This document shows, in pieces, positions 41,167 through 59,991 of a stretch of DNA of 64,000 bases. This stretch comes from an uncultured bacterium (lineage in GTDB: Bacteria; Actinomycetota; Actinomycetes; S36-B12), in NCBI GenBank assembly GCA_903896585.1, contig CAITYI010000261.1:400-64399 (forward strand), written 5' to 3'. Both the position numbers and the translations under genes were made by a program. Every line of letters begins with the position of its first letter. The stretch's first letter is position 1. Under the pieces are notes generated by a model that saw only the letters and a list, made by a program, of their open reading frames with translations, did not search any database and was not told the origin of the DNA.

Positions 41167-41229
41167 TATGGGTGCCTTTCGAAGGGATCACAGGTGTATC
41201 CGAGTTTAGCCATTTGTTGGCAGATAGCT

Positions 41230-42597: not shown

Positions 42598-43268
42598 GTT
42601 TTGTGGGCTTTCCACGTGCGAATATACGCTGGAATGAGAGTGTTTGTTGGCACCTGGGGATCAGGAATTGGATCGCCATATGAATAATTGATGGGTACAA
42701 CCCCAGCCCAAAGATCCCGACCTTGGGGTGTGTGAAGATCCGCTGGGTTATCGTCGGGATCTCCTTCGCCAACTTTCACCGACCATTCGGTGATATTCAT
42801 GGCGAGAGTGTAAGTGGCTTTGAGTTCTTGCGATGTCGGTTGCCGGGCATCATTCCAACGTCCAGGCATGAGATGTTCCGTGATTGTCTGAAGTGCCGCA
42901 ATTTCGGAATCCCCTTCGAGAAGGGTGAAAGTTCCGAAGATCATGACAGAGCGGTAATTCATACTGGATTCAAATAGGCTCCGAGCAAGAACGAGACCGT
43001 CGAGGATCGTCACTGTTGCGCATGCGGGGGACCCTGCGGCTAGGACTTTAAAGAGCCGTGATGCTGCGGAGCCGTGAATAAGGAATTGTTCATTTAAGCG
43101 AGCATAGGCGACCGGAACAACGATGGGGGATTCGTGATCAACGGTTCCGATATGGGCAACTAAACCGGCATCGAGGATCTGATTCATTAGTCCCCGATCC
43201 ACGCTTGCCTTTTCAGGTAGCCGCTTGACTCGAGTGAAGTCTGGGTCACGCATGGTCGGACCCGTCAC
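42594..43268 (-). CDS. pyridoxamine 5'-phosphate oxidase-like (split-barrel flavin/deazaflavin-binding) protein
   Basis: 224 aa. The N-terminal pattern RLPEKASVDRGLMNQILDAGLVAHIGTV...PIVVPVAYAR...LIHGSAASR is typical of the PNPOx-like fold. GTGA overlap with the aminotransferase stop. Confidence 0.65.
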   Translation of the reverse strand: MTGPTMRDPDFTRVKRLPEKASVDRGLMNQILDAGLVAHIGTVDHESPIVVPVAYARLNEQFLIHGSAASRLFKVLAAGSPACATVTILDGLVLARSLFESSMNYRSVMIFGTFTLLEGDSEIAALQTITEHLMPGRWNDARQPTSQELKATYTLAMNITEWSVKVGEGDPDDNPADLHTPQGRDLWAGVVPINYSYGDPIPDPQVPTNTLIPAYIRTWKAHKT

Positions 43269-44665
43269 AGAATTTCGAGGGCACCTGTCAGCACCGTCCG
43301 AAGTTTCTGTTCGATTTCGTCGAATTCAGGTTGCCCAATAATGAGTGGGGGAGCCAACTGAATGACCGGATCTCCTCGGTCATCGGCTCGACAGTAAAGA
43401 CCATTCTCGAATAGTGCTTTGGAGAGGTATCCGCGAAGAAGCCGCTCACTTTCATTTTCGTTGAATGTTTCCCGGGTTACCTTGTCTTTGACCAATTCGA
43501 TGCCATAGAAATAGCCGGCTCCACGAATATCTCCAACAATGGGTAGGTCACTTAACTTCTCCAGCGTTCGGCGAAAATTTCCCTCATTCTCCAATACGTT
43601 TTGATTGAGACCTTCCCTTTCGAAAATATCCAGATTTGCCATGGCAACTGCTGCCGAGACCGGATGACCGCCCCAGGTATACCCGTGAAGGAATGCCGTC
43701 GTCCCATTTTTGAAGGGTTCAAAGAGTCGGTCACTGGCGATCATTGCCCCCAATGGGGAGTAACCAGAGGTCATGCCTTTGGCGCAAGTAATGATGTCCG
43801 GTGTAACGCCGAATCTATTCATGGCAAAGAAGTCACCGATTCGGCCAAATGCCGTAATTGTTTCGTCTGCCACCATGAGAACGTCGTACCGATCACATAT
43901 TTCGCGTACCCGTTCTAAATATCCGGGAGGGGGTGGAAAGCATCCACCGGAGTTTTGTACTGGTTCGATAAAAACCGCGGCGACACTATCGGGTCCTTCG
44001 AACTCTATTGCTTCGGCAATTCGATCGGCGGCCCAAAGACCAAAAGCTTTTTCATCGCCTCGAAATTCTTCGGGAGCACGGTAGAAATTTGTATTGGGTA
44101 CCTTTACTCCTCCGGGAACAAGAGGTTCGAATGGAATTTTCGCAGCGGGAATGCCGGTGATACTCAGCGCACCCTGTGGTGTTCCGTGGTAGGCGATCGA
44201 GCGGCTGATCACCTTGTATTTGGTGGGTTTGCCGGTGAGTTTGAAGAATTGCTTCGCCAGTTTCCACGCAGTTTCAACAGCCTCACCACCACCGGAAGTG
44301 AAAAATACTCTGTTTAAATCGCCCGGTGCTAGGTGGGCGAGGCGCTCCGCGAGCAAAATGGCCTGGGGGTGTGCATAGGACCAGATGGGGAAAAAGGCGA
44401 GCTCCTCTGCCTGTTTGGCGGCAGCTTGCGCAAGTTCCTTTCGCCCATGCCCTGCCTGAACGGTAAACAATCCCGAGAGTCCATCAAAGTACTTATTGCC
44501 TTGATCGTCCCAGATATAAGCACCATCGCCCTTGGTGATTACGGGGACATGTCCACCATCAAAGTAGGTGGAATGCCTGGTGAAATGCATCCAGAGGTGA
44601 TCGCGAGCTTTATCGGCCAAGTTGTCTTGTCCTGATTCGGTCACGTATTGCGGCGTTGTTGTCAT
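43265..44665 (-). CDS. class-III (omega-amino) aminotransferase
   Basis: About 466 aa with SGGGEAVETAWKLA, the DETITAFGR (DE-x-x-x-GR) motif and the PLP lysine context CAKGMTSGY. ATG 44665 forms an ATGA overlap with the Lrp stop. Confidence 0.85.
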   Translation of the reverse strand: MTTTPQYVTESGQDNLADKARDHLWMHFTRHSTYFDGGHVPVITKGDGAYIWDDQGNKYFDGLSGLFTVQAGHGRKELAQAAAKQAEELAFFPIWSYAHPQAILLAERLAHLAPGDLNRVFFTSGGGEAVETAWKLAKQFFKLTGKPTKYKVISRSIAYHGTPQGALSITGIPAAKIPFEPLVPGGVKVPNTNFYRAPEEFRGDEKAFGLWAADRIAEAIEFEGPDSVAAVFIEPVQNSGGCFPPPPGYLERVREICDRYDVLMVADETITAFGRIGDFFAMNRFGVTPDIITCAKGMTSGYSPLGAMIASDRLFEPFKNGTTAFLHGYTWGGHPVSAAVAMANLDIFEREGLNQNVLENEGNFRRTLEKLSDLPIVGDIRGAGYFYGIELVKDKVTRETFNENESERLLRGYLSKALFENGLYCRADDRGDPVIQLAPPLIIGQPEFDEIEQKLRTVLTGALEIL

Positions 44666-45132
44666 CTGGTTCCCCATGTGTAGGTTTGCTTGCGAAGGTT
44701 GAGGTACATGAATGTTTCGGTTGATAACACCCCTGGCATCGATCGGATCTGGCGGTTGACCACATCAAGCAGATGATGATCATCTTCTGTAACGCATTCG
44801 GCGAGGATGTCGTACTTGCCTGCCACCACGACCATGTAGGCAATCTCGGGTAGTTTCTCTAATTTATCTGCCACCGCATCCACATCGCCTTGCACGGTAA
44901 TTCCGATCATGGCTGATCTGGTGAAACCAACCTGTGTTGGATCAGTGACTGCCACAATTTGCATGATGCCCATATCGTGCAGCTTTTGTACCCGTTGTCG
45001 AACCGCAGCTTCGGAGAGACCCACTGCTTTTCCAATTGTTGCGTAAGGGCGGCGACCGTCCTGTTGGAGTTGTTCAATAATGGCTTTTGAAGCGTCATCA
45101 AGTGGAGCGGGTGATGTCCGGGATCTTGCCAT
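44662..45132 (-). CDS. Lrp/AsnC family transcriptional regulator
   Basis: 156 aa with the HTH YATIGKAVGLSEAAVRQRVQKL plus a C-terminal RAM/ligand domain. Confidence 0.88.
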   Translation of the reverse strand: MARSRTSPAPLDDASKAIIEQLQQDGRRPYATIGKAVGLSEAAVRQRVQKLHDMGIMQIVAVTDPTQVGFTRSAMIGITVQGDVDAVADKLEKLPEIAYMVVVAGKYDILAECVTEDDHHLLDVVNRQIRSMPGVLSTETFMYLNLRKQTYTWGTR

Positions 45133-45134
45133 GC

Positions 45135-45150
45135 GTCCATCTTGATGGAC
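45135..45150. promoter_or_regulatory. palindrome GTCCATC-TT-GATGGAC abutting the Lrp start codon
   Basis: Read directly. It occupies -3 to -18 relative to the Lrp ATG (45132), where a Shine-Dalgarno would be expected. An AT-rich spacer with two AAATGTC direct repeats (45192-45198, 45212-45218) follows. Confidence 0.35.
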
Positions 45151-45292
45151 GAAAGTGCATTTGGCAAGTAAATCCGCAGGAAATCAATTAAAAATGTCCG
45201 GAAAACGAATCAAATGTCAGTTTTTACTAATGAAATCACAATCCTGGAGGTAGGCTTCACCAGGAGATATGGCCGATCTGGGAGGAATCACG

Positions 45293-46735
45293 ATGACAAA
45301 AGAGTTAAAGAATTTCGTTGGCGGTGAGTTCGTCTCAACCCGCGATGGAGTGTCAACCGAATTAGTCAATCCGACAACGGGGGAGGTCTTTGCCACTGCA
45401 CCGGTGTCAGGTCCCGCCGATATTGATCAAGCGTATGCCGCAGCGGCCAGCGCATTTGACTCGTGGAAAAACACCACCCCCTCGGATCGCCAGCAGGCAC
45501 TTCTAAAAATCGCTCAAGTGTTTGAAGATCATGCTGAAGAGCTTGTCGCGGTGGAGAGTGAGAATACGGGTAAACCAATCGCGGTCACCATGTCTGAGGA
45601 GATCCCTCCCATGGTGGATCAAATCCGATTCTTTGCTGGTGCGGCGCGGGTACTTGAGGGTAAAGCTGCCGGGGAGTATATGCAAGGTTTCACATCCATG
45701 ATTCGCCGTGAACCCATTGGTGTGATCGGCCAAGTGACTCCGTGGAACTATCCCATGATGATGGCGGTGTGGAAGTACATTCCCGCCATAGCGGCCGGAA
45801 ACACGGTTGTTCTCAAACCGAGCGATACCACCCCCGCATCCACCCTGAAAATGGCTGAACTTATTGCGCAGTCAGATGCACTGCCCCCTGGTGTGCTCAA
45901 TATCGTGTGCGGGGATCGGGATACAGGTAAGGCACTCGTTGAACATAAGACCCCGCAGATGGTGTCAATCACCGGGTCAGTGCGAGCGGGTATGCAAGTC
46001 GCGCAGTCGGCCGCACTTGATGTGAAACGAGTGCATCTCGAGTTGGGCGGCAAGGCACCCGTACTCGTATTTGACGATGCTGATATTGAAGCCGCCGCAG
46101 AGTGGTTGGCGGTCGCTGGGTTCTTCAATGCAGGTCAGGATTGCACTGCTGCAACTCGCATGTTAGTCGCTCCTCGAATCTACGATGATTTTGTTGCTGC
46201 CATGGCGGAGCAAGCAGTGGGTACAGCAACCACCTTCGCCGACGGACCGAGTGGGGAAGGCCTAGTTCCTCCGGTAAACAATATGCACCACATGGATCGG
46301 GTTTTGGGTTTCTTAGAACGCGCTCCCAAACATGCTCAGGTTGTTGCTGGAGGATCTCGTCAGGGAGACCGAGGTTTCTACATCTCACCAACGGTTGTTG
46401 CTGGATTGCAGCAGGAAGACGAAATGATTCAAAATGAAATTTTCGGTCCAGTAATTACAATTCAGAAGTTCGATGATGAAGCCCAAGCACTTGCATATGC
46501 CAATGGAGTGAATTACGGATTGGCGTCCTCGGTGTGGACCAAGGATTTCGGTCGCGCCATGCGAATGGCAAAAGGGCTTGATTTTGGGTGCGTCTGGATC
46601 AATACCCACATTCCGCTAGTGGCAGAGATGCCCCATGGTGGCTTCAAGCACTCAGGCTATGGAAAGGATTTATCCATGTATGGGTTTGAGGACTACACGA
46701 GAATCAAGCACGTCATGGCAAATATAGAGTCATAA
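45293..46735 (+). CDS. NAD-dependent aldehyde dehydrogenase (aminoaldehyde / semialdehyde type)
   Basis: MTKELKNFVGGEFV N-terminus, PWNYP, ELGGKAP and the catalytic Cys in GQDCTAATR. The track ORF begins at 45269. Confidence 0.88.
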   Translation: MTKELKNFVGGEFVSTRDGVSTELVNPTTGEVFATAPVSGPADIDQAYAAAASAFDSWKNTTPSDRQQALLKIAQVFEDHAEELVAVESENTGKPIAVTMSEEIPPMVDQIRFFAGAARVLEGKAAGEYMQGFTSMIRREPIGVIGQVTPWNYPMMMAVWKYIPAIAAGNTVVLKPSDTTPASTLKMAELIAQSDALPPGVLNIVCGDRDTGKALVEHKTPQMVSITGSVRAGMQVAQSAALDVKRVHLELGGKAPVLVFDDADIEAAAEWLAVAGFFNAGQDCTAATRMLVAPRIYDDFVAAMAEQAVGTATTFADGPSGEGLVPPVNNMHHMDRVLGFLERAPKHAQVVAGGSRQGDRGFYISPTVVAGLQQEDEMIQNEIFGPVITIQKFDDEAQALAYANGVNYGLASSVWTKDFGRAMRMAKGLDFGCVWINTHIPLVAEMPHGGFKHSGYGKDLSMYGFEDYTRIKHVMANIES

Positions 46736-46809: not shown

Positions 46810-48036
46810 TTAGTTGCCACCCTCATTGAGTGTGACCTCAATGGGTGCGTATCCGTCACCCGTTACGTTGAGACCTTCTGCAGTCAGTGCTGCATCGGCC
46901 GCCTCTGCGTATTGATTTGTGTACGACTCCGCATCTGGTGCGGCTGAAACAATTGCAATGCCGTCTAGGTTCTTGGTGCCGGTAGCAACTGCAACCGTCT
47001 GATCCCAAAGGACAGGATCAATAACGCCAATGCCGGAAGGTGATGGCCAGATCAGTTTGTTGACCTCGTTCATCATCCAGAGTTGGTGGCTGGCTCCAAG
47101 TTTTGAACCGTTTGCCGTAATGATGTCTGCACATTGCTGTGCGTTATCGCGGCAGTGGATCCAGCCCTTGAGTGAAGCGGTTACGAATCGCTGGGTGGTG
47201 TCCTGATAGGCAGGATCGCTCAATCGCTCTTGCGAAGCCCAAATGGCATCCTGGTACATGGCAACACCAAAGTCGTTCCAGTTGATGACATTGAAGTCTT
47301 CTGGCTGGTACAACTCGCCGGTCTCTGGATTGACTGCTTCCAAAACCTGGGCATACTCGTTGTAGGTCATGGCCTGGGCAGCATCGATATCGCGGCTCAA
47401 CAGCGCTTGCATATCAAATTGCTGCTGCACGAGTTCCAGATCACCTGAGGCGTCCAGTCCCGCTCCACTGATTCCAGCGAACAGTTCGTATTCGTTACCG
47501 AATCCCCAGTTACCGACCTTTTTGCCGGCGAGATCTTCAGGTGTTGTGATGCCTGAATCAGCCCACGAGACCTGAAGGGTGCCGGAGCGTTGGTAGACCT
47601 GCGCCACGTTAGTAATCAAAGCTCCTTGCTCCCGTGAGGAGAGCGCCTTGGGTACCCACGCAATGGCGAAGTCCGCTCCACCCTGTGCAAGAACTGTCTG
47701 GGGAACAATGTCCACGCCACCTTCAAGGATGGTGACGTCAAGGCATTGTTCTTCGTAGAACCCAAGATCCTTGGCGGCGTAATAGCCACCAAATTGGGCT
47801 TGCACGAACCACTGCAGTTGCAAACTGACAGGTGTGAGTTCGGTGCATGCAGCCGCAGTTTCATCTGTGGCCGTTTCAGTTGCTGTCTCTTCAGCAGCAG
47901 TCTCTTCAGCAGCGGCGGCGGTTTCGGTTGCAGCATCGGTGCTGTCCGAATCACTACTGCACGCTGATAGAGCGAGAGCTGCAACTGCTGCAATACCCAC
48001 TACTCGGGTAAAGCGGCTACGAGCTGTTACGCGCAT
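46810..48036 (-). CDS. ABC transporter substrate-binding lipoprotein, NMT1/THI5/ThiY-SsuA-like
   Basis: ATG 48036 follows AGGAGGA. Signal peptide with lipobox LSAC, then a low-complexity Thr/Ala/Glu linker. The core QLQWFVQAQFGGYYAAKDLGFYEEQCLDVTILEGG resembles the N-terminal motif of TauT/NitT-family binding proteins. The track ORF begins at 48111. Confidence 0.8.
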   Translation of the reverse strand: MRVTARSRFTRVVGIAAVAALALSACSSDSDSTDAATETAAAAEETAAEETATETATDETAAACTELTPVSLQLQWFVQAQFGGYYAAKDLGFYEEQCLDVTILEGGVDIVPQTVLAQGGADFAIAWVPKALSSREQGALITNVAQVYQRSGTLQVSWADSGITTPEDLAGKKVGNWGFGNEYELFAGISGAGLDASGDLELVQQQFDMQALLSRDIDAAQAMTYNEYAQVLEAVNPETGELYQPEDFNVINWNDFGVAMYQDAIWASQERLSDPAYQDTTQRFVTASLKGWIHCRDNAQQCADIITANGSKLGASHQLWMMNEVNKLIWPSPSGIGVIDPVLWDQTVAVATGTKNLDGIAIVSAAPDAESYTNQYAEAADAALTAEGLNVTGDGYAPIEVTLNEGGN

Positions 48037-48055
48037 TGTTCCTCCTGTTTGTGAT

Positions 48056-48832
48056 TCAGGTCGACCGAGACCGACCTGTCCATGGTGTTGTCCATTTTTC
48101 AAGGGCCACAACTATTAAATAGAAGATGAGACCAGTGATAATGGAAGCAACCACGTACGCCCAAGCTCGGCCGTACGCAGTGTTGGCAGCCGCACCTGCT
48201 ATTCGGCTGCCAAGTCCTTCTTGGGGTCCGCCGAAATACTCGGCAACCAGTGCTGCAATGACCGCGAGGGGTGCAGCGATCTTGAGTCCGGTAAAAAAGA
48301 ATGGAATAGCATTTGGAATTCGTAAAACTCGCAGTGTCATGCGGGGCTTGGCGTTCAAGGAACGCATCAGTTCTAATTGCACAGGCTGCACCTGCAATAA
48401 GCCTCGAGTGACGTTCACGAACATGGGGAACAGCACAATGATCATGGTCACCAGGACCCTTGGAGTTCGGCTGGTGATGTTGAACATGTTGTTCAGTATG
48501 GGAGTCAATGCGATAATGGGAACTGTTGCCAGCCCCGCTGCTAGTGGGGTAATCAGACGATTAACCACAATCAATCTTTGGGCCAGCAGGGACATGATTA
48601 ATGCTGCAATGGTTCCAAAGACTAATCCGAGAAATGCGGTGGTGCCCGTGTAATAAGCAGCTGCCCACATCAGGGATACGTCAGAAGTGAAGTTTTCAGC
48701 AATCAGTGACGGAGCCGGCAGTAGGTAGGGCTGGATATCATTAGCAATGACGAGCAACTGCCATGCACCAAGGAATAGTGCAGCGATCAGAACAGGCGGC
48801 CAAATAAGGCTCAAGCTAAGGCGTTTGGTCAT
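48056..48832 (-). CDS. ABC transporter permease (TauT/NitT type)
   Basis: 258 aa, polytopic, with the binding-protein-dependent EAA-like loop (MRSLNAKPRMTLRVLRIPNAIP). TAATG overlap with the ATPase. Confidence 0.85.
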   Translation of the reverse strand: MTKRLSLSLIWPPVLIAALFLGAWQLLVIANDIQPYLLPAPSLIAENFTSDVSLMWAAAYYTGTTAFLGLVFGTIAALIMSLLAQRLIVVNRLITPLAAGLATVPIIALTPILNNMFNITSRTPRVLVTMIIVLFPMFVNVTRGLLQVQPVQLELMRSLNAKPRMTLRVLRIPNAIPFFFTGLKIAAPLAVIAALVAEYFGGPQEGLGSRIAGAAANTAYGRAWAYVVASIITGLIFYLIVVALEKWTTPWTGRSRST

Positions 48833-49650
48833 TAGACCTCACCAATTCTGGTGTGATTTCCCCCTGCGGAGCGACCACGCAAAGCTTCCCGAACCTCGGT
48901 GACACCTGAATAAAACGCATCGGTTTCTCGAGTATCCTCGTTTCGTTCTCCCAGATTGATGTCCACAATCCCAGTAATCCGTCCCGGACGAGCAGACATC
49001 ACCACCACCCGATCTGACAAATAGACGGCTTCGGGAATTGAGTGAGTCACAAATACGATTGTTTTGCCTGTCTCAAGGCGAATGCGAAGAAGTTCATTTT
49101 GCATTCTTTCCCGAGTCATTTCGTCGAGGGCACCAAATGGTTCATCCATGAGCAAGAGAGGGGGATCCACAGCCAATGATCGGGCAATGGCAACTCGCTG
49201 TTGCATTCCTCCAGACAGTTCCCACGGGCGGTGATTGGCGAAGTCGGCAAGTTGAACCATTTCCAGGAGCTCGAGGGCGCGAGCAGCTCGTCGCTTTTTG
49301 TCCCAGCCGAGCAACTCGAGTGGCAACTCAACGTTCTTAACAACGGTTCTCCAGTCAAAAAGGGCAGCCTGCTGGAAGGCGATTCCATAGAGTTGTTGGA
49401 CTCGAGCCTCGTGGGGGCTCACTCCGGCAACTTCAACGACACCTCGAGAAGCGTCCGTCAAGTCACCAATGACCCTGAGTAGTGTGCTCTTGCCGCAACC
49501 TGAAGGCCCGATGAGCGAGATAAATTCCCCGGCAATGATGGTGAGGGAGACATCAGAAAGCGCCGTTACTTCATTGCTGGCACCTTCATTGAAAATCTTC
49601 CAGAGTCCTTCAACAGAAACCGCTTGGCCTCCGGCTGGCACGTTACTCAT
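48832..49650 (-). CDS. ABC transporter ATP-binding protein
   Basis: GPSGCGKST, LSGGMQQRVAIAR and LLMDEPFGALD motifs. Confidence 0.92.
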   Translation of the reverse strand: MSNVPAGGQAVSVEGLWKIFNEGASNEVTALSDVSLTIIAGEFISLIGPSGCGKSTLLRVIGDLTDASRGVVEVAGVSPHEARVQQLYGIAFQQAALFDWRTVVKNVELPLELLGWDKKRRAARALELLEMVQLADFANHRPWELSGGMQQRVAIARSLAVDPPLLLMDEPFGALDEMTRERMQNELLRIRLETGKTIVFVTHSIPEAVYLSDRVVVMSARPGRITGIVDINLGERNEDTRETDAFYSGVTEVREALRGRSAGGNHTRIGEV

Positions 49651-50510
49651 GCCTTTCCTTCCTTGGGGAGATTGCGAGTGAGATACATATCTAAGGCAGT
49701 TACCAGTGCGGTTGCGACCAGTCCAAGGAGGATTGCGCCAAATACCGCGACATAAACCTTGGCAGGTTGGGAGGTTGTTTCGCGAGCATATTCAATTATC
49801 AGCCTACCGATACCACCTTTCACACCGGTGGATATTTCTGCCACCACGGTGCCAACTACGGCTGCGGCAATGGAAACCTTGAGCGCTGGCACCAAATATG
49901 GAATTGATGAGGGGAAGCGTAATTTCCATAGAACTTGTTTCGGTGTGGCTGCATAGGATCGCATGAGTTCCAGTGACGTGGGGCGTGGTGCCTGCAGCCC
50001 ACGGAGGGCACCGACGGAAAGTGGGAAAAATGCAAGATATGCCGCAATAAACATGACGGAATATGTGGTGGTCCAGGACACTGGGCCAAACGAAACACGG
50101 TTGCCGAGACCAACAATAAGTGGGGCAAGGGCAATTAATGGCACTGTTTGCGATGCAATCACAAAAGGAAGCAGGCCCCTTTCAAAGAAATAGAAGCGCT
50201 GCATGATGATGGCCAAAAGCAGTCCCACACTGACACCGATGATAAAACCACCGAAGGCAATCAAAAGCGAGTATGCGGCGGCGCTTAAGACTGCTTCCAA
50301 AACACTGGTATCCGAGCCACGTACCTCAGGATTGCCAAATGCCGAAACCATGCTCCACACATGTGGCATGGAGGTGTCATCGGTCTTAAGTGGAAGCTCA
50401 ATTAACGAGCCAATGAATTTGACAAGCTCCCACATGATGAGGACGAGCGCAACCCCTGCCAGAGCCCACAGGGATGAAATTGTGATCCTCCGCAAGCGGG
50501 TAGTTTTCAT
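49647..50510 (-). CDS. ABC transporter permease (second subunit)
   Basis: 287 aa, polytopic, with the EAA-like loop MRSYAATPKQVLWKLRFPSSIP. ATGA overlap with the ATPase start. Confidence 0.85.
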   Translation of the reverse strand: MKTTRLRRITISSLWALAGVALVLIMWELVKFIGSLIELPLKTDDTSMPHVWSMVSAFGNPEVRGSDTSVLEAVLSAAAYSLLIAFGGFIIGVSVGLLLAIIMQRFYFFERGLLPFVIASQTVPLIALAPLIVGLGNRVSFGPVSWTTTYSVMFIAAYLAFFPLSVGALRGLQAPRPTSLELMRSYAATPKQVLWKLRFPSSIPYLVPALKVSIAAAVVGTVVAEISTGVKGGIGRLIIEYARETTSQPAKVYVAVFGAILLGLVATALVTALDMYLTRNLPKEGKA

Positions 50511-50519
50511 GCGGTAGCG

Positions 50520-51539
50520 CTACTCCTTTGCCAAAACGACATCTGTAATCGAGGGAATAATGTGCTCACCATACTCAGAAAGAGTGTGATCCTTGTCATC
50601 GTGTTGTAAATAAAGGGCAAACTGATTAACGCCGAGCGCTTTGAGTTCTTCCAAGCGACGGATGTGTTCTTCAGGAGGCCCGATAATGCAGAATCTGTCA
50701 ATGATTTCGTCCGGCACGAAGTCGGTGTGCGTATTTCCAGCCTGACCATGCTGGTTGTAGTCGTAGCCTTGGCGATTCTTGATGTAATCGGTGAGAGCCT
50801 GAGGAACGGCACCACCATTATCGCCATAGCGTTCAACAATGTCAGCCACGTGATTGCCAACCATGCCACCAAACCACCTCAGTTGGTCTCGGGCGTGGGG
50901 TATGTCATCGGTGACGTACGCGGGAGCAGCGACGCAAATATAGATAGAGTCAGGATCTCTTCCGGCTGCTGCGGCCGCGTCCTTCACGGCTTTGATGGTC
51001 CACTCAGCGATAGAAGGGTCGGCGAGCTGCAAAATAAAGCCGTCCCCAACTTCGCCGGTAAGGGCAAGAACTTTGGGTCCATATGCCGCGACCATGACAT
51101 CTGCTCGACTGCCTGGGGCCCAAGGTAAACGGAGGCTATTACCTTTGTAATCAACAGTCTGTCCGTTTACCAGACCCTTGAGATCGATTACTGATTGGCG
51201 TAGGTCAGCAACTGAAACAGGCTTGCCATTGGTTACTCGCACCGCAGAATCACCGCGGCCAATGCCAATGACGGTTCTATTTCCGTACATTTCATTGAGT
51301 GTCGCGAAAACAGAAGCGGTCACCGTGATATCACGGGTCGCTGGGTTTGTGACCATGGGACCGACTTTTACTTTGCGAGTTTCATCAAGAATTTTGCTGT
51401 AGATGACATACGGTTCCTCCCACAGAATATGTGAGTCAAAGGTCCAGATGTAGGTGAACCCAAAAGTCTCCGCACGCCTGGCAAGATCAATGACTCGGGC
51501 AGCAGGAGGTGTGCACTGAAGTACGACTCCAAATTCCAT
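50520..51539 (-). CDS. luciferase-like (LLM) flavin/F420-type oxidoreductase, Mer-like subgroup
   Basis: 339 aa. MEFGVVLQ...FGFTYIWTFDSH...KVGPMVTNPATRDITVTASVFATLNEMYGNRTVIGIGRGD is collinear by eye with methylene-H4MPT reductase-type LLM proteins. The cofactor cannot be decided from sequence. Confidence 0.8.
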   Translation of the reverse strand: MEFGVVLQCTPPAARVIDLARRAETFGFTYIWTFDSHILWEEPYVIYSKILDETRKVKVGPMVTNPATRDITVTASVFATLNEMYGNRTVIGIGRGDSAVRVTNGKPVSVADLRQSVIDLKGLVNGQTVDYKGNSLRLPWAPGSRADVMVAAYGPKVLALTGEVGDGFILQLADPSIAEWTIKAVKDAAAAAGRDPDSIYICVAAPAYVTDDIPHARDQLRWFGGMVGNHVADIVERYGDNGGAVPQALTDYIKNRQGYDYNQHGQAGNTHTDFVPDEIIDRFCIIGPPEEHIRRLEELKALGVNQFALYLQHDDKDHTLSEYGEHIIPSITDVVLAKE

Positions 51540-51601
51540 GGTGGGTAATCCTTCCTTTCAGTTGGTTGACGAGCCTGGTGGTGAATAAAACTAGCGAATC
51601 A

Positions 51602-53089
51602 TTATCGGGTAAGTGGAAAGCCCAAATCCACAGATGAAGTTGACGGATCTGGCCACCGTGAAGTCACAGTTTTGGTATGCGTGTAGAAATCAATGCCCGC
51701 AGGTCCGTACATGGCAACATCTCCGAAAAGCGATGCCTTCCAGCCACCGAAACTGTAGTAGCCGACTGGAACTGGAATGGGGACATTTATTCCAACCATT
51801 CCTACCTGGATATCAAATTGGAACTGTCGAGCTGCGCCACCATCTCGAGTGAAAATCGCAGTACCATTTCCGTATTGGTGATTGTTGATCAATTCAACGG
51901 CATCGTCATAGGTTTCAACGCGCGTCACACTCAGTACCGGCCCAAAAATTTCATCGTCATACACCTTCATTCCAGGCGAGACGTTGTCCATCAGAGTGGG
52001 AGCGAGGAAAAATCCTTCTGCTGGAAGATTGTTCTCACGTCCGTCCACCACAACTGTGGCGCCTTCTGCTGCCGCACCAGAAATGTATGAAGCGACTTTA
52101 TCTCGATGCTCCCTCGTGATTAACGGTCCCATTTCGGCATTGGGGTCGGTTCCCGGACCCGTGATGAGTTTTGGCAGGCGTTCTTTGATGGCCTCAATCA
52201 ACTTGTCGCCAACACCACCCACTGCGACTACAACAGAGATAGCCATGCAGCGCTCACCGGCTGATCCGAAACCCGCACTTACGGCTGCATCGGCGGCCAT
52301 ATTGATGTCGGCATCGGGAAGAACCACCATGTGATTCTTAGCGCCACCTAGTGCCTGCACTCGCTTGCCGTTGGCTGTTCCAGTGGAGTAAATGTATTTA
52401 GCAATTGGTGTTGATCCCACGAAACTGATGGCTGCGACATCAGGATGCGCGAGTAAGCCGTCGACTGCAATTTTATCGCCTTGAAGCACGGTGAAAACTC
52501 CATCGGGCAGTCCAGCTTTTTGCAGAAGTTCAGCCAGGTACAGCGCAACGGAGGGATCTTTTTCACTGGGTTTCAAAACAAATGCGTTACCAGTGGCGAT
52601 TGCATTAGCAAACATCCACATGGGCACCATGGCAGGGAAATTAAATGGTGTGATACCTGCTACAACACCAAGAGGTTGGCGAATTGAGTAAACATCTACG
52701 CCAGTGGAAACTTGCTCGCTGTAGCCGCCTTTGAGGAGAGCCGGAATGCTGCAGGCGAATTCAATGTTCTCAATTCCACGCGCCAGCTCACCCGCGGCGT
52801 CGCTGGGCACTTTGCCGTGTTCGATGGACACCAGATTGGCAATGTGATCCCGATTCTGGACAACTAATTCACGGAAACGGAACATGATCTCGGCTCTTTT
52901 TGAAATCGATGTTGCTCGCCACATCTGCGAGACAGCCTTGGCCGATGCAATTGCGAACTCCACTTCCTCGGCGCTGGCGAGACCAACTTGTGCCTGCTGT
53001 TCCCCGGTCGCGGGGTTATAAACAGGGGCGAAGTTTCCAGATTTCGAGGGATGAAGTTTTCCATTGATCCAATGGTCGATATTGCGCAT
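51602..53089 (-). CDS. mmsA: CoA-acylating methylmalonate/malonate-semialdehyde dehydrogenase
   Basis: MRNIDHWINGK N-terminus, FNFPAMVPMWM and the catalytic Cys in GERCMA. The track ORF begins at 53128. Confidence 0.85.
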   Translation of the reverse strand: MRNIDHWINGKLHPSKSGNFAPVYNPATGEQQAQVGLASAEEVEFAIASAKAVSQMWRATSISKRAEIMFRFRELVVQNRDHIANLVSIEHGKVPSDAAGELARGIENIEFACSIPALLKGGYSEQVSTGVDVYSIRQPLGVVAGITPFNFPAMVPMWMFANAIATGNAFVLKPSEKDPSVALYLAELLQKAGLPDGVFTVLQGDKIAVDGLLAHPDVAAISFVGSTPIAKYIYSTGTANGKRVQALGGAKNHMVVLPDADINMAADAAVSAGFGSAGERCMAISVVVAVGGVGDKLIEAIKERLPKLITGPGTDPNAEMGPLITREHRDKVASYISGAAAEGATVVVDGRENNLPAEGFFLAPTLMDNVSPGMKVYDDEIFGPVLSVTRVETYDDAVELINNHQYGNGTAIFTRDGGAARQFQFDIQVGMVGINVPIPVPVGYYSFGGWKASLFGDVAMYGPAGIDFYTHTKTVTSRWPDPSTSSVDLGFPLTR

Positions 53090-53155
53090 TCTGTCTCCAG
53101 ATTTAGTTGGTTGTTGGTGAGTGAACATTTGCCCGTTGAGTGCGAAGTGATGCTG

Positions 53156-54574
53156 CTACATCAAGTATTGGGAGAGGCCTCTCTTGAGATACTTGCCGTG
53201 ACCCTTAGTACCGAAATATTCATTGTTTTCGACCACAATTTTCCCACGTGAAATTACCGTGTCCACATGGCCATCAATCACGGTCCCTTCCCACGCCGAG
53301 TGATCCATGTTCATATGGTGGGTTTTTTCCAGCCCGATTTCCGTGCGTCCTGCGGGGTCATAAATCACAATATCGGCATCAGATCCTGGAGCGAGGGCAC
53401 CCTTTTGTGGGTACAGCCCAAACATGCGGGCGGGCGTGGTGGAGCACAATTCGACCCACCTTTCGAGTGTGATTTGGCCCTCGACGACACCTTGGTAAAT
53501 CAGATCCATCCGATGCTCGACTGTTCCAATTCCATTGGGAATCTTCGAGAAATCGCCAATACCGAGTTCCTTTTGTTCTTTGAAGCAGAATGGGCAGTGA
53601 TCGGTACTGACGATTGAGAGGTCGTTGGTACGCAAGTAGCGCCATAATTCCTCGTGATGTCCCTCTTCTTTTGAACGAAGGGGAGTTGAACATACCCACT
53701 TAGCACCTTCAAATCCGGGTTGGGAAAGGTGATCTTCTAGCGATAGATAAAGGTATTGCGGGCAGGTTTCCCCGAATACGTTCAAGCCTTGATCGCGCGC
53801 GCCTTGCAAAACATTGACGGCCTGTTTCGCCGACATATGAACAATATAGAGCGGTGCACCGGTCATTCGAGCCAACATGATCGCCCGGTGGACGGCTTCA
53901 GCCTCGGTTTCCCAGGGTCGCGTGAGCGAATGGTACTTAGGATCAGTTTTGCCCTCTGCGAGCGCTTGAGAAACAAGAACATCTATCGCGATGCCATTTT
54001 CGGCATGCATCATGATCATGGAACCATTGCCGGCAGCTGTCTGCATGGCCCGGAGAATTTGGCCATCGTCACTATAGAAGACACCGGGGTAGGCCATGAA
54101 TAATTTGAAGCTGGTTACTCCCTCACCAATGAGTTCATCCATGGCCTTGAGTGAGTCGTCGTCAACTCCGCCGATTATTTGGTGAAAACCGTAGTCAATA
54201 TGGCAGTTACCGCCGGCTTTTTCATGCCATGAGGACAGACCATCTTGCACGCGCTCACCAAATTTCTGCACGGCGAAGTCGATAATGGTGGTGGTTCCAC
54301 CCCAGGCAGCGGCTCTGGTTCCCGTTTCAAAGGTATCGGAGGCAAAGGTCCCGCCAAAGGGCAATTCCATATGGGTGTGCGAATCCACGCCGCCCGGAAT
54401 CACGTACTTACCCGACGCGTCAATTACCCGATCAACCGTGGACTCCAATTGAGATCCCAAAGTTGTATCCCCGGGAGTGATGATTGCGGCGATAGTTTCA
54501 CCATCGACAAGTACATCGGCGTGAGATGTTCCCAGTGGGGATACCAGTAATCCGTTCTTAATGAGTATTTTCAC
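53156..54574 (-). CDS. dihydropyrimidinase / D-hydantoinase
   Basis: 472 aa with the metal ligands GGVDSHTH, the carboxylated-lysine context FKLFMAY and STDHCPF. Confidence 0.88.
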   Translation of the reverse strand: MKILIKNGLLVSPLGTSHADVLVDGETIAAIITPGDTTLGSQLESTVDRVIDASGKYVIPGGVDSHTHMELPFGGTFASDTFETGTRAAAWGGTTTIIDFAVQKFGERVQDGLSSWHEKAGGNCHIDYGFHQIIGGVDDDSLKAMDELIGEGVTSFKLFMAYPGVFYSDDGQILRAMQTAAGNGSMIMMHAENGIAIDVLVSQALAEGKTDPKYHSLTRPWETEAEAVHRAIMLARMTGAPLYIVHMSAKQAVNVLQGARDQGLNVFGETCPQYLYLSLEDHLSQPGFEGAKWVCSTPLRSKEEGHHEELWRYLRTNDLSIVSTDHCPFCFKEQKELGIGDFSKIPNGIGTVEHRMDLIYQGVVEGQITLERWVELCSTTPARMFGLYPQKGALAPGSDADIVIYDPAGRTEIGLEKTHHMNMDHSAWEGTVIDGHVDTVISRGKIVVENNEYFGTKGHGKYLKRGLSQYLM

Positions 54575-54606
54575 GGCTGCTCCTCGTTGTTCTCCAAGTT
54601 GGCTAA

Positions 54607-55443
54607 TTATGGTCGAACGAGATCCTGGTAAGCGTCTGGACGACGGTCACGGTAGAACTGCCAGCGAGTACGTACTGAATTTATGAGATCAAGATCGAGG
54701 TCTCGAACAATAAGTTCTGATTTGTAGGGGTCGCCCTTTTCGCCAACATAACTTCCTTCCGGATCCACAAAATAAGACTGACCGTAGAAGTCATCGTCAC
54801 CAAGGTCCTCAATACCAACCCGGTTGATGGCGCCAACAAAGTATTCATTTGCCACGGCCGCAGCGGGCTGCTCGATACTCCACAAGTACTGGGATAGTCC
54901 CCGGGATGTGGCCGAAGGGTTGAACACGATTTGGGCGCCGTTGAGGCCCAAGGCCCGCCAGCCTTCTGGGAAATGGCGGTCATAACAGATGTAGACCCCA
55001 ATCTTCCCAACCGCTGTGTCAAAAATTGGGTAGCCGCCATTGCCAGGGCGGAAATAGAACTTCTCCCAAAATCCCTTTACGTGGGGGATGTGTTGCTTGC
55101 GATATTTACCCAAATAGCTTCCGTCAGCATCAATCACGGCGGCCGTGTTGTAGAGGAATCCGGGGCCGGCATCTTCATACATGGGCAGGATCATGACCAT
55201 TTCTAATTCCCGGGCAATCTTTTGAAAACGTTCGGTTATGGGACCTGGGATGGCCTCCGCGTAATCATAAAAGGCCGCATCCTGTACCTGACAGAAGTAG
55301 GGTCCATAAAATAACTCTTGGAAACAAATAACTTTTGCGCCTTGTTCGGCTGCTGCACGAGCATAATCTTCATGTTTTTGGATCATGCTCTCTTTGTCCC
55401 CGGTCCAGTCTGTTTGGACGAGGGCTGCGCGAACAATTGACAT
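54607..55443 (-). CDS. nitrilase-superfamily N-carbamoyl amidase (beta-ureidopropionase suggested by context)
   Basis: 278 aa with Glu-Lys-Cys triad contexts CFQELF, YRKQHIP and VYICYDRHFPE. The sequence alone also resembles N-carbamoylputrescine amidase; the operon context favours beta-ureidopropionase. Confidence 0.8.
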   Translation of the reverse strand: MSIVRAALVQTDWTGDKESMIQKHEDYARAAAEQGAKVICFQELFYGPYFCQVQDAAFYDYAEAIPGPITERFQKIARELEMVMILPMYEDAGPGFLYNTAAVIDADGSYLGKYRKQHIPHVKGFWEKFYFRPGNGGYPIFDTAVGKIGVYICYDRHFPEGWRALGLNGAQIVFNPSATSRGLSQYLWSIEQPAAAVANEYFVGAINRVGIEDLGDDDFYGQSYFVDPEGSYVGEKGDPYKSELIVRDLDLDLINSVRTRWQFYRDRRPDAYQDLVRP

Positions 55444-55461: not shown

Positions 55462-55524
55462 TGTGTTATTCCTAATGCTAGACACAAACAGATGTGTTAC
55501 ACAGGTGATTAACATATTTGTTAC
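55462..55524. promoter_or_regulatory. candidate operator: three TGT(G)TTA(C) direct repeats in the pyd/MocR divergent spacer
   Basis: TGTGTTA at 55462-55468 and 55493-55499 (31-bp spacing) and TTTGTTAC at 55517-55524. There is also an inverted pair TTGTGT 55461-55466 / ACACAA 55482-55487. Confidence 0.3.
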
Positions 55525-55544
55525 GCGATTTTTTAAGGGGTGGC

Positions 55545-56942
55545 ATGGCACAGAAGGCCGGTGGGGCGGTTTTGGCCGATGGCACCCTGGAATTGTTCTC
55601 AAAATTGGTTGAAGAACGTAGTGCTCGCGGAATTGCTTCAGCCCTTCGCCACATGATCACCGCGGGGGAAATTCATCCAGGTGACAAGCTTCCCACGGTT
55701 CGGGACCTGAGCGCCTCCCTCGGAGTGAGCCCAGCAACGGTCGCCCAAGCGTGGCAGGCACTCGCTCAGGCGGGGATGCTGATCACTCGAGGTCGAGCGG
55801 GGACTTTTGTTGCCCACTTCAACGACAAGGATCAGCCTCCTCGGTTTTTGGGTTTGGGTGGCCCGCTGATCAATTCCGGTATCGATTTATCACGCGGAAC
55901 ACCAGATCCGTTGCTCCTACCCTCGATATCCCAAGCCATGGAAAGAGTAACTGCCAATCGCGATATCTGGACGAGCAGTTATTTCGATGAACCGGTTATC
56001 CCAGAGCTAGATCAACTGCTTCGACAATCATGGCCCTTTCGCCCCGATTCATTGACGGTCGTTGACGGGGCCTTAGACGGCCTGTCCCGAATCATTGCTG
56101 TCCTTGTGTCGTTTGGGGATCGAGTAATTGTCGAGTCTCCGGGTTTCCCGCCGCTGCTGGACATTCTGGAACGAGTTGGGGCGGAGATCATTCCCATCGG
56201 TCTGGATGAACAGGGCCCCCTTGTTTCCGAACTGGCTGATGCGCTGGTGCGGGACCCGGTGGCTGCATTTTTGCAGCCCCGGGCGCACAATCCAACGGGA
56301 ACAAGCATGTCGCAACTTCGAGCATCGGAGATTGCCGCACTACTGGGTAGGAGCACGTGCTGGATCATTGAAGATGACCACAGTGGTGACATCTCAACGG
56401 CCCCCGATGTCAGCATTGGTCAGTATCGGCCGGATAAAACCGTTCATATCAGGAGTTTTTCGAAGTCACATGGTCCCGATCTGCGGTTAGCTGCCATCGG
56501 GGGGGCGAGTGCAGTTATCGAACCCCTCATCAGAGATCGAATGCTCGGACCCGGATGGAGTAGTCGCTTGCTTCAACATATTCTGGTAGAACTCTTAACC
56601 AGTGACGACTCCGTTTCTGCGGTCGAGCATGCGCGGGATCAATACTCGTTGAGATCCACCCATATCCGCGAGGCGTTGCTAGACAGTGGTCTAGATCCAA
56701 GTCCCGGCGATGGCATCAATCTCTTTATCCCGGTTGAAGACGAACAAAGGGTACTCATCAATCTGGCCGCTGAAGGAATCAGAGTTGCCCCGGGTCGTCC
56801 GTTCTTCATTGGAAAGGTGCAGTCTCCCGGAATTCGCGTAACAATTTCTGCCTTAGAAAGTAATCCCGATAAAATCAGTAAGTTGGCTCGCACAATCGCG
56901 CAAGCCGTCGATCGGTCCGAGCAAACCCAAGGAATTCGTTAA
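55545..56942 (+). CDS. MocR/GabR/PdxR-type regulator (GntR wHTH fused to a fold-type-I aminotransferase-like domain)
   Basis: wHTH LPTVRDLSASLGVSPATVAQAW, followed by an aminotransferase-like domain with the PLP lysine context SFSKSHGPDLRLA. The track ORF begins at TTG 55518. Confidence 0.85.
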   Translation: MAQKAGGAVLADGTLELFSKLVEERSARGIASALRHMITAGEIHPGDKLPTVRDLSASLGVSPATVAQAWQALAQAGMLITRGRAGTFVAHFNDKDQPPRFLGLGGPLINSGIDLSRGTPDPLLLPSISQAMERVTANRDIWTSSYFDEPVIPELDQLLRQSWPFRPDSLTVVDGALDGLSRIIAVLVSFGDRVIVESPGFPPLLDILERVGAEIIPIGLDEQGPLVSELADALVRDPVAAFLQPRAHNPTGTSMSQLRASEIAALLGRSTCWIIEDDHSGDISTAPDVSIGQYRPDKTVHIRSFSKSHGPDLRLAAIGGASAVIEPLIRDRMLGPGWSSRLLQHILVELLTSDDSVSAVEHARDQYSLRSTHIREALLDSGLDPSPGDGINLFIPVEDEQRVLINLAAEGIRVAPGRPFFIGKVQSPGIRVTISALESNPDKISKLARTIAQAVDRSEQTQGIR

Positions 56943-56982: not shown

Positions 56983-57046
56983 CGTTTTTGGGAGACTGCG
57001 TCCACGGGATGACTTTAGATCGGGCCGGGAGAACAGGGGAGTGACA

Positions 57047-58567
57047 ATGCACACGCTGGATTCACGATTTGAAGGTTCATGGATCAACGGTTCATCTTTC
57101 GCAGGCAATGGTGATCCATGGGAGGTTATTAACCCAGCAGACTCGAGTGTTGTGGCGACTCTCACGTTGGCGACCCCTGCAGACGTCGCCTACGCCGTTG
57201 AATCAGCGCACATGGCGTTTCAGACTTGGTCACGCACGGTCCCCGCCGAGAGAAGTGCGCTACTGCATGCCTTGGCCAGAAGACTAGAAGAGCGAGCTGA
57301 GGAGTATGTACTGGTCGAATCGGCCCAGACGGGAAAGCCTTTTCGGCTTTGCCGAGAGTTTGATATCCCCGGATCAATTGACAATGTGAGTTATTTTGCC
57401 GGAATCGCTCGCAATGCGGAAGGGAAAGCATCGACCGAGTGGGTATCCAATATCAACTCCTCAATTCGACGTGAACCGATTGGGGTGATCGGGTCAATAG
57501 CCCCCTGGAACTACCCCCTCCAAATGGCCATGTGGAAAGTGCTCCCCGCAATTGCCGCTGGTAACACAATTGTGCTCAAGCCGGCCGAGCTCACCCCTCT
57601 CACCGCTCTCATGTTGGCCCAAGACTGCACCCACGTGGGTTTCCCAGACGGTGTCGTAAATGTCGTGACTGGTTCGGGACCGTTGGCCGGAGAGGCCCTC
57701 GTCTCGCATCCAGAGGTGGCCATGGTTTCCTTTACCGGATCTACCAAGGTGGGCAAGCGAGTCATGGAGCTGGCGACCGCGGGTATCAAGCGAGTCCATT
57801 TAGAGCTCGGGGGCAAAGCTCCATTCATCGTGTTTGCCGATGCCAACCTCGAAGCAGCGATCCACGGTGCGGTGGCCGGTTCGCTGATCAACAGCGGCCA
57901 GGATTGCACGGCGGCAACGAGGGCCTATGTACATGAATCCCTGTTTGCAGATTTCGTTACCGGAGTAAATGAGCTTTTCGCACAGATTTGCGTAGGGGAC
58001 CCACAATTGGACTCAACAGATATTGGACCCCTTGTGTCAATTGCTCAGCGGGACCGAGTTCACGGTTTCGTGGAGCGGGCCAGGTCCCAAGGAGCCACGG
58101 TGCATGTTGGCGGGGAATCGCCTAGCGAGAAACCCGATGGCGTGGAAGGTGGAGCCTTCTATCCGCCGACTCTCCTCACCGGGGTTGGCCAACACTGGGA
58201 AATAGTCCAAGAGGAAATCTTTGGCCCGGTGCTGGTTGTTCTGCCCTTTAATTCCATCGAGGAGGGTTTAGCTCTGGCAAATGACACTCCCTATGGATTA
58301 GCGGCCTCCGCCTGGACACAGTCAGTTGTCATCTCGGAGCGAGCTCAGCGGGAGATTAATGCGGGTACGGTCTGGATCAATGACCACATTCCGATCATGA
58401 GTGAGATGCCACATGGTGGATTTGGGGGCTCGGGTTTCGGCAAGGATATGTCTACCTACTCCCTAGAGGAGTACACCAGAATCAAGCATGTAGCCGTTGA
58501 CGTCACGGGTGAGGTTAAGAAAGACTGGCATCGGACCATTTTCCGGGATAACTTCCCCGAAGCCTGA
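57047..58567 (+). CDS. NAD-dependent aldehyde dehydrogenase (paralogue of 45293-46735)
   Basis: PWNYP, ELGGKAP and GQDCTAATR motifs. The C-terminal EEYTRIKHV matches the other copy's EDYTRIKHV. The start is ATG 57047 or GTG 57041, after GGGGAG. Confidence 0.88.
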   Translation: [506 protein letters not shown]

Positions 58568-58739
58568 CAGCGACGACACGAAGTTGTTACATAATTTGTA
58601 CTCAATAAACTGAAGGTAGCCAGCTTTACCGACTACCGTTGGCGAAGAGATACAACCATCAGGCCGGACAAAGTGGCCCGTAATGAAAACGCTCGTCTTG
58701 GAATGTTCGTATTGAAATTCGCATAGGAGAGGAAAGACC

Positions 58740-59945: not shown

Positions 59946-59991
59946 CGTTTTCAACTGTGTGGATCAAATAACTTGAACTTAACAGTGTGCC

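Follow-up and report, generated by a model that had tools for sequence, protein, structure and literature searches.

We analyzed a 64-kb stretch of DNA from an uncultured bacterium of the Actinomycetota (contig CAITYI010000261.1; the window, meaning the whole stretch of 64,000 nucleotides), in which eight co-directional genes on the minus strand, from position 55443 to position 46810, combine enzymes of reductive pyrimidine catabolism, an LLM-class oxidoreductase and an ABC importer. The proteins of the window were assigned to families by Pfam and NCBIfam scans, for which curated cutoffs are quoted, and both the open reading frames (ORFs) and the family scans agree with the gene order given in the initial annotation (Table 1). 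The genes are tightly packed: in operon order, spacers of 32, 27, 62 and 9 nt are followed by overlaps of 4 and 1 nt, and the substrate-binding lipoprotein likely starts at an ATG at 48036 (MRVTARS...LALSAC, a signal peptide with a lipobox), leaving a 19-nt spacer upstream of it. The pydB-mmsA spacer would be 66 nt instead of 27 if MmsA starts at Met14. The perfect hairpin beyond the last gene is likely a bidirectional terminator that marks the end of the operon; at the other end, the divergently transcribed MocR-type protein probably regulates the operon, and the direct repeat in the region between the two transcription units is a candidate operator.

Steps 2 and 5 of the reductive pathway, and probably step 3, are found in the operon, as first proposed, with a dihydropyrimidinase (PydB) and a CoA-acylating semialdehyde dehydrogenase (MmsA) that both exceed the cutoffs of their families, and with a nitrilase-type amidase for the remaining step. 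The top NCBIfam match of this amidase is aguB, at 247 bits and under the 410 cutoff of that model, and in the Protein Data Bank (PDB) it is about equally close to eukaryote-type beta-ureidopropionases (190 bits for the top match, Drosophila beta-alanine synthase 2VHH, and 172 bits) and to an N-carbamoylputrescine amidase (185 bits); the gene context favours a PydC identity. The PDB matches of the binding lipoprotein are 4NMY and ThiY (3IX1), the latter a pyrimidine-precursor binding protein. A class-III aminotransferase does lie in the neighbouring operon, as the initial annotation had it, and whether it is a member of the pyrimidine pathway is uncertain. Judged from its predicted gene content, the operon is best explained as encoding the uptake and reductive catabolism of uracil and thymine.

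Table 1. Features of the operon and its flanks, with positions in the window, and F420-related features of relatives, with positions in the named locus.
Feature	Position	Strand	Evidence and remarks
pydC-like, nitrilase-type N-carbamoyl-beta-amino-acid amidase, probable beta-ureidopropionase (operon gene 1)	54607-55443	-	PF00795, 227 bits; 278 aa
pydB, dihydropyrimidinase	53156-54574	-	TIGR02033, 542 bits (cutoff 393); 472 aa
mmsA, CoA-acylating (methyl)malonate-semialdehyde dehydrogenase	51602-53128	-	TIGR01722, 703 bits (cutoff 448); 508 aa
LLM-class Mer-like oxidoreductase, proposed F420H2-dependent uracil/thymine C5=C6 reductase	50520-51539	-	PF00296, 200 bits; TIGR03842, 566 bits (cutoff 295); 339 aa
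ABC importer permease 1	49647-50510	-	PF00528 (BPD_transp_1)
ABC importer ATPase, NitT/TauT type	48832-49650	-	PF00005; top NCBIfam matches are taurine/nitrate type ATPases
ABC importer permease 2	48056-48832	-	PF00528 (BPD_transp_1)
NMT1/THI5-type substrate-binding lipoprotein, probable pyrimidine-base binder	46810-48036	-	PF09084, 117 bits; longest ORF to 48111
Hairpin, perfect 20-bp stem and 4-nt loop	46750-46793	both	between the convergent binding-protein (stop 46810) and aldehyde dehydrogenase (stop 46735) genes
Direct repeat of 14 nt, AACAGATGTGTTAC / AACATATTTGTTAC	55487-55524	.	24 nt start to start; pydC-mocR intergenic region
MocR-type regulator (GntR helix-turn-helix and pyridoxal-phosphate aminotransferase-fold domain), divergent from operon	55518-56942	+	PF00392 and PF00155; probable ATG 55546
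Class-III aminotransferase, adjacent operon; candidate beta-alanine/beta-aminoisobutyrate transaminase	43265-44677	-	PRK06541, 807 bits
PF12900 split-barrel flavoprotein, adjacent operon	42594-43268		no NCBIfam match; top PDB match M. smegmatis flavin-nucleotide-binding protein 4YBN
DAO-family FAD oxidoreductase, adjacent operon	41230-42615		
cofD/F420-0 transporter, L058	2-1475		
cofD/F420-0 transporter, L059	100-1134		
cofD/F420-0 transporter, L075	2-4251		
cofD/F420-0 transporter, L080	428-1384		
cofD/F420-0 transporter, L081	1208-2221		
Plasmid island, L092 (Leisingera aquaemixtae NZ_CP081034.1)	545-16002		
Plasmid island, L093 (Paracoccus alcaliphilus p402633)	9587-18794		

The LLM protein and the missing first-step enzyme

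The claim that the window lacks PydA, the enzyme of the first reductive step, was borne out: a tblastn search of the whole 64-kb window with E. coli PreA and PreT returned a best E value of 1.9. As a control, the same PreA query retrieved PreA at 39-44% identity and E values around 1e-90 in Deinococcus, Bacillus and Proteobacteria; since these matches lie in distant phyla, the sensitivity of the search is adequate and the negative result for the window is meaningful. The window likewise holds no rut genes, and RutA is not among the NCBIfam matches of the LLM protein at E <= 1e-3.

The LLM protein is a core member of TIGR03842, which it matches with 566.2 bits over residues 2-330 of 339 (cutoff 295.45). 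This family, named 'LLM class F420-dependent oxidoreductase' (CPS_4043 family), is classified by NCBIfam as a hypothetical equivalog with no reaction assigned, so that the protein does not fall within a clade of unrelated known function, one of the outcomes that the initial annotation had set against its proposal. The next NCBIfam models are those of Mer and other F420-type LLM families, all under their own cutoffs, and models of FMN monooxygenases are marginal. When the family profile was compared with the PDB, six Mer entries matched over their full length (E values of 1e-72 to 1e-58), followed by F420-dependent dehydrogenases at 1e-35 to 1e-28, with FMN enzymes far behind. An AlphaFold (AF2) model of the protein, with a predicted local distance difference test score (pLDDT) of 91.3 and a predicted template modelling score (pTM) of 0.90, gave the same ranking with Foldseek, where Mer came first (TM score 0.78-0.81, 25-26% identity), then Adf and Fgd, and where the top 30 matches were all LLM structures. 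The three rankings thus agree in placing the protein in the Mer/F420 branch, and not in that of RutA and SsuD, as had been judged by eye. At E <= 1e-3, a HMMER search for relatives of the LLM protein collected 7,466 cluster representatives, of which 426 reached E <= 1e-30.

The comparison with Mer (EC 1.5.98.2; PDB 1Z69, 8QPL) extends to the cofactor site, for which the roles of the Mer residues (the backstop, Asp96, position 178, Glu6 and the loops around the F420 tail) were taken from the jMer-F420 study (PMC11094777). Residues of the LLM protein are numbered from Met1, and conservation was counted over 81 orthologues. Both proteins share the full-length (beta/alpha)8 LLM fold. The segment M62-V63-T64-N65-P66, in which V63-T64-N65-P66 is invariant, matches the non-prolyl cis-peptide backstop after beta3 of Mer (jMer G61-V62-T-N-P) at the level of sequence. 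Asp97 and Gln171, also invariant, correspond to jMer Asp96 and to the carboxamide at jMer position 178, respectively, and the two loops that grip the F420 tail in Mer are invariant as well, one behind beta4 (G94-R101) and the other behind beta5 (Y153-G154-P155). Both enzymes would move a hydride from F420H2 to a carbon beside a pyrimidine-type ring. In contrast, the LLM protein stays under both Mer cutoffs (137.5 versus 276 bits for PRK02271, and 130.2 versus 348.7 bits for TIGR03555); the catalytic Glu6 of Mer, the proton donor to pterin N10, is replaced by Val6, and by V, C, S or T across the family; Mer has nothing equivalent to the family-specific insert at about residues 253-272 (where Y259, D260, Y261, H264 and G265 never vary) or to the invariant segment Q219-D233, likewise specific to the family; and the host organisms and gene context are entirely different. 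In fold and cofactor site the protein thus resembles Mer, without being one.

Gene context in relatives and around the operon

A scan of the contigs of one genome per species with the LLM protein matched at least 600 stretches, at least 597 of which encode a relative. The context counts given here refer to the best 80 of these at least 600 loci, with flanks of up to 10 kb on either side mapped by tblastn. All 80 loci belong to Actinomycetota (Nanopelagicales, Ilumatobacteraceae and other Acidimicrobiia, Solirubrobacteraceae, Microbacteriaceae, Nocardia, Williamsia, Streptomyces and Frankiaceae), and their LLM proteins are 66-85% identical to that of the window. The order pydC-pydB-(mmsA)-LLM-(ABC importer) is nearly universal among them. 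Where at least 4.5 kb of upstream sequence was available, pydB lies within 3.5 kb upstream of the LLM gene in 52 of 55 loci, and a carbamoyl amidase, either nitrilase-type or M20-type, is present in 54 of 55; orthologues of the LLM protein therefore co-occur with pydB and pydC almost without exception, a relationship that the initial annotation had left to be tabulated. The nitrilase-type amidase adjoins pydB in 58 of the 80 loci, an NMT1-type importer follows the LLM gene in 39 of the 57 loci with a downstream flank, and 23 of the 80, including loci of Ilumatobacteraceae, Microbacteriaceae and Nocardia, have a MocR homologue transcribed divergently from pydC. No PreA or PreT was found by the tblastn maps within 10 kb of the LLM gene in any of the 80 loci, and neither PreA/PreT nor a DHO_dh/Pyr_redox_2 pair lies near pydBC in five further loci (L001, L084, L088, L092 and L093).

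The variations among these clusters are also informative. Nocardia, Agromyces, Cryobacterium and Microbacterium have both the aminotransferase gene and mmsA within the cluster, and a class-III aminotransferase is also part of the Leisingera cluster described below. The nitrilase-type enzyme gives way, in Solirubrobacteraceae, Baekduia and Williamsia, to an M20 'hydantoinase/carbamoylase family amidase' (TIGR01879, 277-289 bits) encoded beside the LLM gene; this non-orthologous swap keeps the logic of the pathway. A minimal unit of amidase, dihydropyrimidinase and LLM protein, without an aminotransferase, is found in seven loci (L018, L032, L055, L061, L065, L073 and L074). Among more distant relatives, a clade with 43% identity keeps importer, amidohydrolase, LLM protein and CN_hydrolase together, and in a member with 42% identity a CN_hydrolase follows the LLM gene.

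Genes for the biosynthesis, salvage or recycling of F420 are linked to the LLM gene in three separate lineages. Using as a query an FbiA sequence taken from a PDB alignment, we found cofD in four Microbacteriaceae loci, with CofD confirmed by TIGR01819 (313-321 bits, cutoff 257). A putative three-gene F420-0 ABC transporter is encoded there too, with TIGR03868 (436-446 bits) and TIGR03869 (463 bits) above their cutoffs and TIGR03873 (329 bits) below its cutoff of 372. In 5 of the 7 Microbacteriaceae loci with upstream sequence, cofD, the putative transporter or both are directly adjacent to the mocR-pydC-pydB-LLM cluster or no more than 5 kb away, which suggests that a cofactor-salvage module is attached to the catabolic operon in this family. 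In Streptomyces sp. NPDC005820 (L065), fbiC (bifunctional CofGH, 1526 bits) lies 55 nt downstream of pydC-pydB-LLM, and npdG (236 bits), the gene of the NADPH-dependent F420 reductase, comes next.

The third lineage is alphaproteobacterial. Ten Leisingera plasmids and one Paracoccus plasmid carry cofG-cofH-cofD-cofC-cofE-npdG followed by an LLM gene that RefSeq annotates as 'TIGR03842 family', all in one operon whose genes overlap by 4 nt except at a single 24-nt spacer. The Leisingera operon diverges from pntAB, a class-III aminotransferase, an M20 amidase, a dihydropyrimidinase and an NCS1 nucleobase symporter, and in the Paracoccus plasmid an NMT1-type ABC transporter related to that of the window follows the cof-npdG-LLM operon. 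At 44-45% identity to the window protein, these proteobacterial LLM proteins share most of its candidate active-site residues, and the pntAB transhydrogenase of Leisingera may feed NADPH to Fno, the npdG product. A complete cofGHDCE-npdG set built around an LLM gene beside pyrimidine-ring hydrolases is, in our view, the strongest in silico argument that the enzyme may depend on F420 and act on pyrimidines. With the linkage in all three lineages, the assignment of F420 as the putative cofactor of the TIGR03842 family appears well supported. A DUF1330 gene accompanies both plasmid islands.

Other differences among the loci concern single components. All four importer genes are absent between the LLM gene and the aldehyde dehydrogenase gene in L005 and L084, whose LLM proteins are 84% and 93% identical to that of the window; the ABC importer was gained or lost recently within this lineage. 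The MocR gene is absent in L005, L006, L016 and L084. The contig of L005 (CAMBQX010000002.1) is labelled 'MAG: Bifidobacterium breve', is syntenic with Nanopelagicales-type loci, and is probably mislabelled. In the cluster of L088/L089 (positions 8001-16022), which encodes a 43%-identical TIGR03842 protein, importer, amidohydrolase, LLM protein and CN_hydrolase are accompanied by an FAA_hydrolase, a second LLM protein, CoA-transferase subunits A and B, a second amidohydrolase and an aminotransferase, possibly a variant pathway that acts on a different N-heterocycle.

The genes on either side of the operon (38811-46735 and 57041-62881) include a potABCD-like importer, two further aldehyde dehydrogenases, a DAO-family oxidase, an acyl-CoA dehydrogenase, a family-III CoA-transferase and an AsnC regulator, so that the pyd operon looks embedded in an amine or polyamine catabolic neighbourhood. 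Two flavoproteins with no assigned function, of the PF12900 and DAO families, are encoded next door, and the description of the LLM protein as the only unassigned redox enzyme thus holds for the operon and fails for the window. The PF12900 gene overlaps the stop of the aminotransferase gene by 4 nt; in an 85%-identical relative (L001, 17076-19157), a single 693-aa protein combines the PF12900 domain with the aminotransferase. The PF12900 protein was considered as an F420 enzyme of the PPOX class and rejected, as it has no NCBIfam match and 4YBN is its closest PDB entry, and a radical-SAM gene (37073-38227) considered as CofG/H is RlmN. The rest of the window consists of housekeeping genes (ddl, recG, smc, ftsY, amt, glnD, ffh, rpsP, trmD, rplS and xerC, and further rpsB, tsf, pyrH, frr, cdsA and rlmN), which are the only genes identified by Pfam and NCBIfam in positions 1-38 kb. 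One ORF of 168 aa (8905-9411) has no Pfam match. Across the 64-kb window no Rfam family reached its gathering score, and no tRNA, riboswitch or small RNA model matched.

Proposed reaction and competing explanations

Comparative genomics supports the suggestion, first made from the window alone, that the LLM protein is a non-homologous dihydropyrimidine dehydrogenase, through its synteny with pyd genes, its linkage to F420 genes and its Mer-like homology. We consider it probable, with moderate confidence, that this protein is the pyrimidine C5=C6 reductase of the operon, the best reading being an F420H2-dependent enzyme that would replace PydA without being homologous to it. In the proposed pathway, the NMT1-type importer would take up the pyrimidine base. 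The LLM protein would then bind F420H2 and, by homology and gene context, transfer a hydride from C5 of F420H2 to C6 of the pyrimidine, while a conserved active-site acid would protonate C5 (candidates are H37, E42, D97, H230, Y259, Y261, H264 and C284), yielding 5,6-dihydrouracil or dihydrothymine. Asp97 and Gln171 may bind the pyrimidine-dione ring, given that the corresponding residues of Mer touch the pyrimidine portion of the pterin. The subsequent steps would follow the classical route. From their family assignments, the dihydropyrimidinase would open the ring and MmsA would form acetyl-CoA or propionyl-CoA; between these steps, the nitrilase-type amidase would probably free beta-alanine or beta-aminoisobutyrate together with NH3 and CO2, and a class-III aminotransferase, presumably the one next door, would supply the semialdehyde. 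In relatives, electrons would flow from NADPH through Fno (npdG) to F420H2.

Several points weigh against this interpretation. The loci were selected through the LLM protein, so the counts run from LLM gene to pyd genes and not from actinobacterial pydBC clusters to the LLM gene. Three loci contain the LLM gene and an amidase with no pydB nearby, the Paracoccus plasmid carries neither pydB nor pydC within 15 kb, and two peripheral TIGR03842 members (P0144 and P0154) lie in other gene contexts. The negative searches for PydA are limited to the 64-kb window and the flanks of the relatives. As for the cofactor, neither the 64-kb window nor the surroundings of the LLM gene in its closest relatives contain a cof/fbi, npdG, fgd or F420-0 transporter gene, and Ca. 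Nanopelagicales, unlike Actinomarinales, have been reported to be unable to synthesize F420 (PMC7771536). The records labelled 'Nanopelagicales' in our data span 51-72% GC, with the lineage of the window at 52%; given this spread, the published statement on acI genomes may not cover this lineage. This leaves three readings: the F420 genes may lie elsewhere in the genome, the organism may take up F420 or F420-0 in the way proposed for the transporter of Microbacteriaceae, or it may use FO or FMN instead.

The alternatives differ in what they change. The initial annotation had allowed for action on another intermediate of a pathway variant, which is less likely because the minimal conserved unit consists of amidase, dihydropyrimidinase and LLM protein. 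In a more specific form, which we judge unlikely, the LLM protein would perform a different redox step, for example an F420H2-dependent reduction of (methyl)malonate semialdehyde, similar to PydE/RutE, or the reduction of some other N-heterocycle ahead of a dihydropyrimidinase-type hydrolase. The alcohol and keto reductases known among F420-dependent LLM proteins (Adf and fHMAD appear among the PDB matches), the non-pyd contexts of some TIGR03842 members and the extra enzymes of the L088 clade (second LLM protein, FAA hydrolase and CoA transferase) are consistent with such a role. However, the minimal unit occurs in many loci without an aminotransferase, so that there would be no semialdehyde to reduce, and in the window MmsA already handles the semialdehyde. 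Moreover, a pyrimidine-type importer in the window and in Paracoccus, or an NCS1 symporter in Leisingera, implies that an oxidized base enters the cell and needs reduction first.

It is also quite unlikely, in our estimation, that the reaction is as proposed but that the Nanopelagicales-type enzyme uses FMN, or free FO taken from the water, because the organism makes no F420. The reported inability of Nanopelagicales and the lack of F420 genes in the window and in the flanks of close relatives, both given above, speak for this version, and NCBIfam has a precedent in TIGR03885, an LLM family with a reversion from F420 to FMN, which our protein matches weakly. Against it, all 109 family-invariant positions, including the tail loops, are identical between the window protein and those of Nocardia and Streptomyces, which are F420 producers, and the operon has no flavin reductase partner.

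That a canonical PydA/PreTA encoded elsewhere in the genome carries out the first step, leaving the LLM protein an accessory part, for instance for modified pyrimidines, we hold to be very unlikely. Bacterial pydA is not always clustered with pydBC, and the scope of the PydA searches, limited to the window and the locus flanks, leaves room for it. This would have to be reconciled with the lack of PreA/PreT near pydBC in all 80 loci and the five further ones, with the retention of the LLM gene in nearly all of these loci at 66-100% identity, and with the Leisingera island, where the gathering of the whole F420 pathway and Fno around the LLM gene beside hydA is hard to explain for an accessory protein. 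Finally, the PF12900 or the DAO-family protein as pyrimidine reductase, with the LLM protein unrelated to the first step, is scarcely credible: mureidomycin biosynthesis does use a PPOX-class split-barrel protein, of the same superfamily as PF12900, to reduce the uracil ring, but both genes occur only in close Nanopelagicales-type loci (4 of 80, plus L001 and L084), as part of an aminotransferase/acyl-CoA dehydrogenase operon to which the fusion in L001 also ties PF12900.

Implications and comparison with known systems

If the LLM protein is the F420H2-dependent pyrimidine reductase proposed here, a reaction would be assigned to a large family of so far unassigned function, and a third, non-homologous solution of the first step would join the NAD(P)H- and ferredoxin-dependent forms of PydA. 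With about 340 residues and no Fe-S clusters, such an enzyme may suit oxic, iron-poor and genome-streamlined bacteria. Pathway reconstructions that look for PydA would now count the use of uracil and thymine as absent from most Actinomycetota. A 2021 review of F420 mentions no role in pyrimidine catabolism, states that not one of the F420-dependent enzymes of Proteobacteria has been studied, and leaves open what these bacteria make the cofactor for (PMC8498797), a question on which the plasmid islands would bear. A wider proposal, which we put forward as tentative and on balance doubtful, is that TIGR03842 represents a widespread F420H2-dependent dihydropyrimidine dehydrogenase that streamlined freshwater Nanopelagicales run on scavenged F420, F420-0 or FO. 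F420 would then gain a role in core nucleotide catabolism, the presence of an F420 pathway and Fno around one enzyme on alphaproteobacterial plasmids would be explained, and the deazaflavin would become a cross-fed 'public good' that gates the scavenging of pyrimidine nitrogen in lakes.

Among the systems already described, RutA is an FMN- and O2-dependent oxygenase that cleaves the ring, needs the flavin reductase RutF and involves no dihydropyrimidinase. It resembles the LLM protein in its fold and in acting on uracil, and differs from it in the model and gene matches reported above. The proposed reaction, and the place in pathway and cluster, are those of PydA/PreT-PreA (EC 1.3.1.1, 1.3.1.2) and the ferredoxin-dependent PydAc. 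The described PydA variants use NADPH, NADH or ferredoxin and are all Fe-S flavoproteins resembling dihydroorotate dehydrogenase (DHOD), with a DHOD-like FMN domain and four [4Fe-4S] clusters, with or without a FAD/NAD(P)H module (PMC7332683). The LLM protein, in contrast, shows no homology to them: it is a single domain of 339 aa with no Fe-S motif and with a predicted diffusible deazaflavin hydride carrier, and would thus be an analogue and not a member of the PydA group.

Two further systems provide precedents. SSGG-03002/NpsU reduces the C5=C6 bond of uracil in mureidomycin/napsamycin biosynthesis, as supported by genetics and nuclear magnetic resonance (NMR), while in vitro assays failed (PMC10714638); it is a putative F420/FMN enzyme of another fold than the LLM protein, and it acts on a uridyl-peptide antibiotic and not on a free base. 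We considered it as an LLM protein and rejected this, as the supplement of that paper shows PPOX-class split-barrel relatives, so the precedent is one of chemistry only. In reductive urate clusters of Chloroflexota, a putative F420-dependent LLM protein has been suggested on bioinformatic grounds to replace the PydA homologue (PMC12507026). There, a PF00296 protein stands in place of UacX/YgfK beside a ring-opening amidohydrolase, which is the same replacement logic for the reduction of a uracil-like ring, although in a urate/'yanthine' pathway and another phylum. No F420- or LLM-type dihydropyrimidine dehydrogenase was found described in the full-text literature, subscription-only articles excluded. 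The pathway and the enzyme superfamily are known, while the proposed first-step enzyme and the physiological role of F420 would be new.

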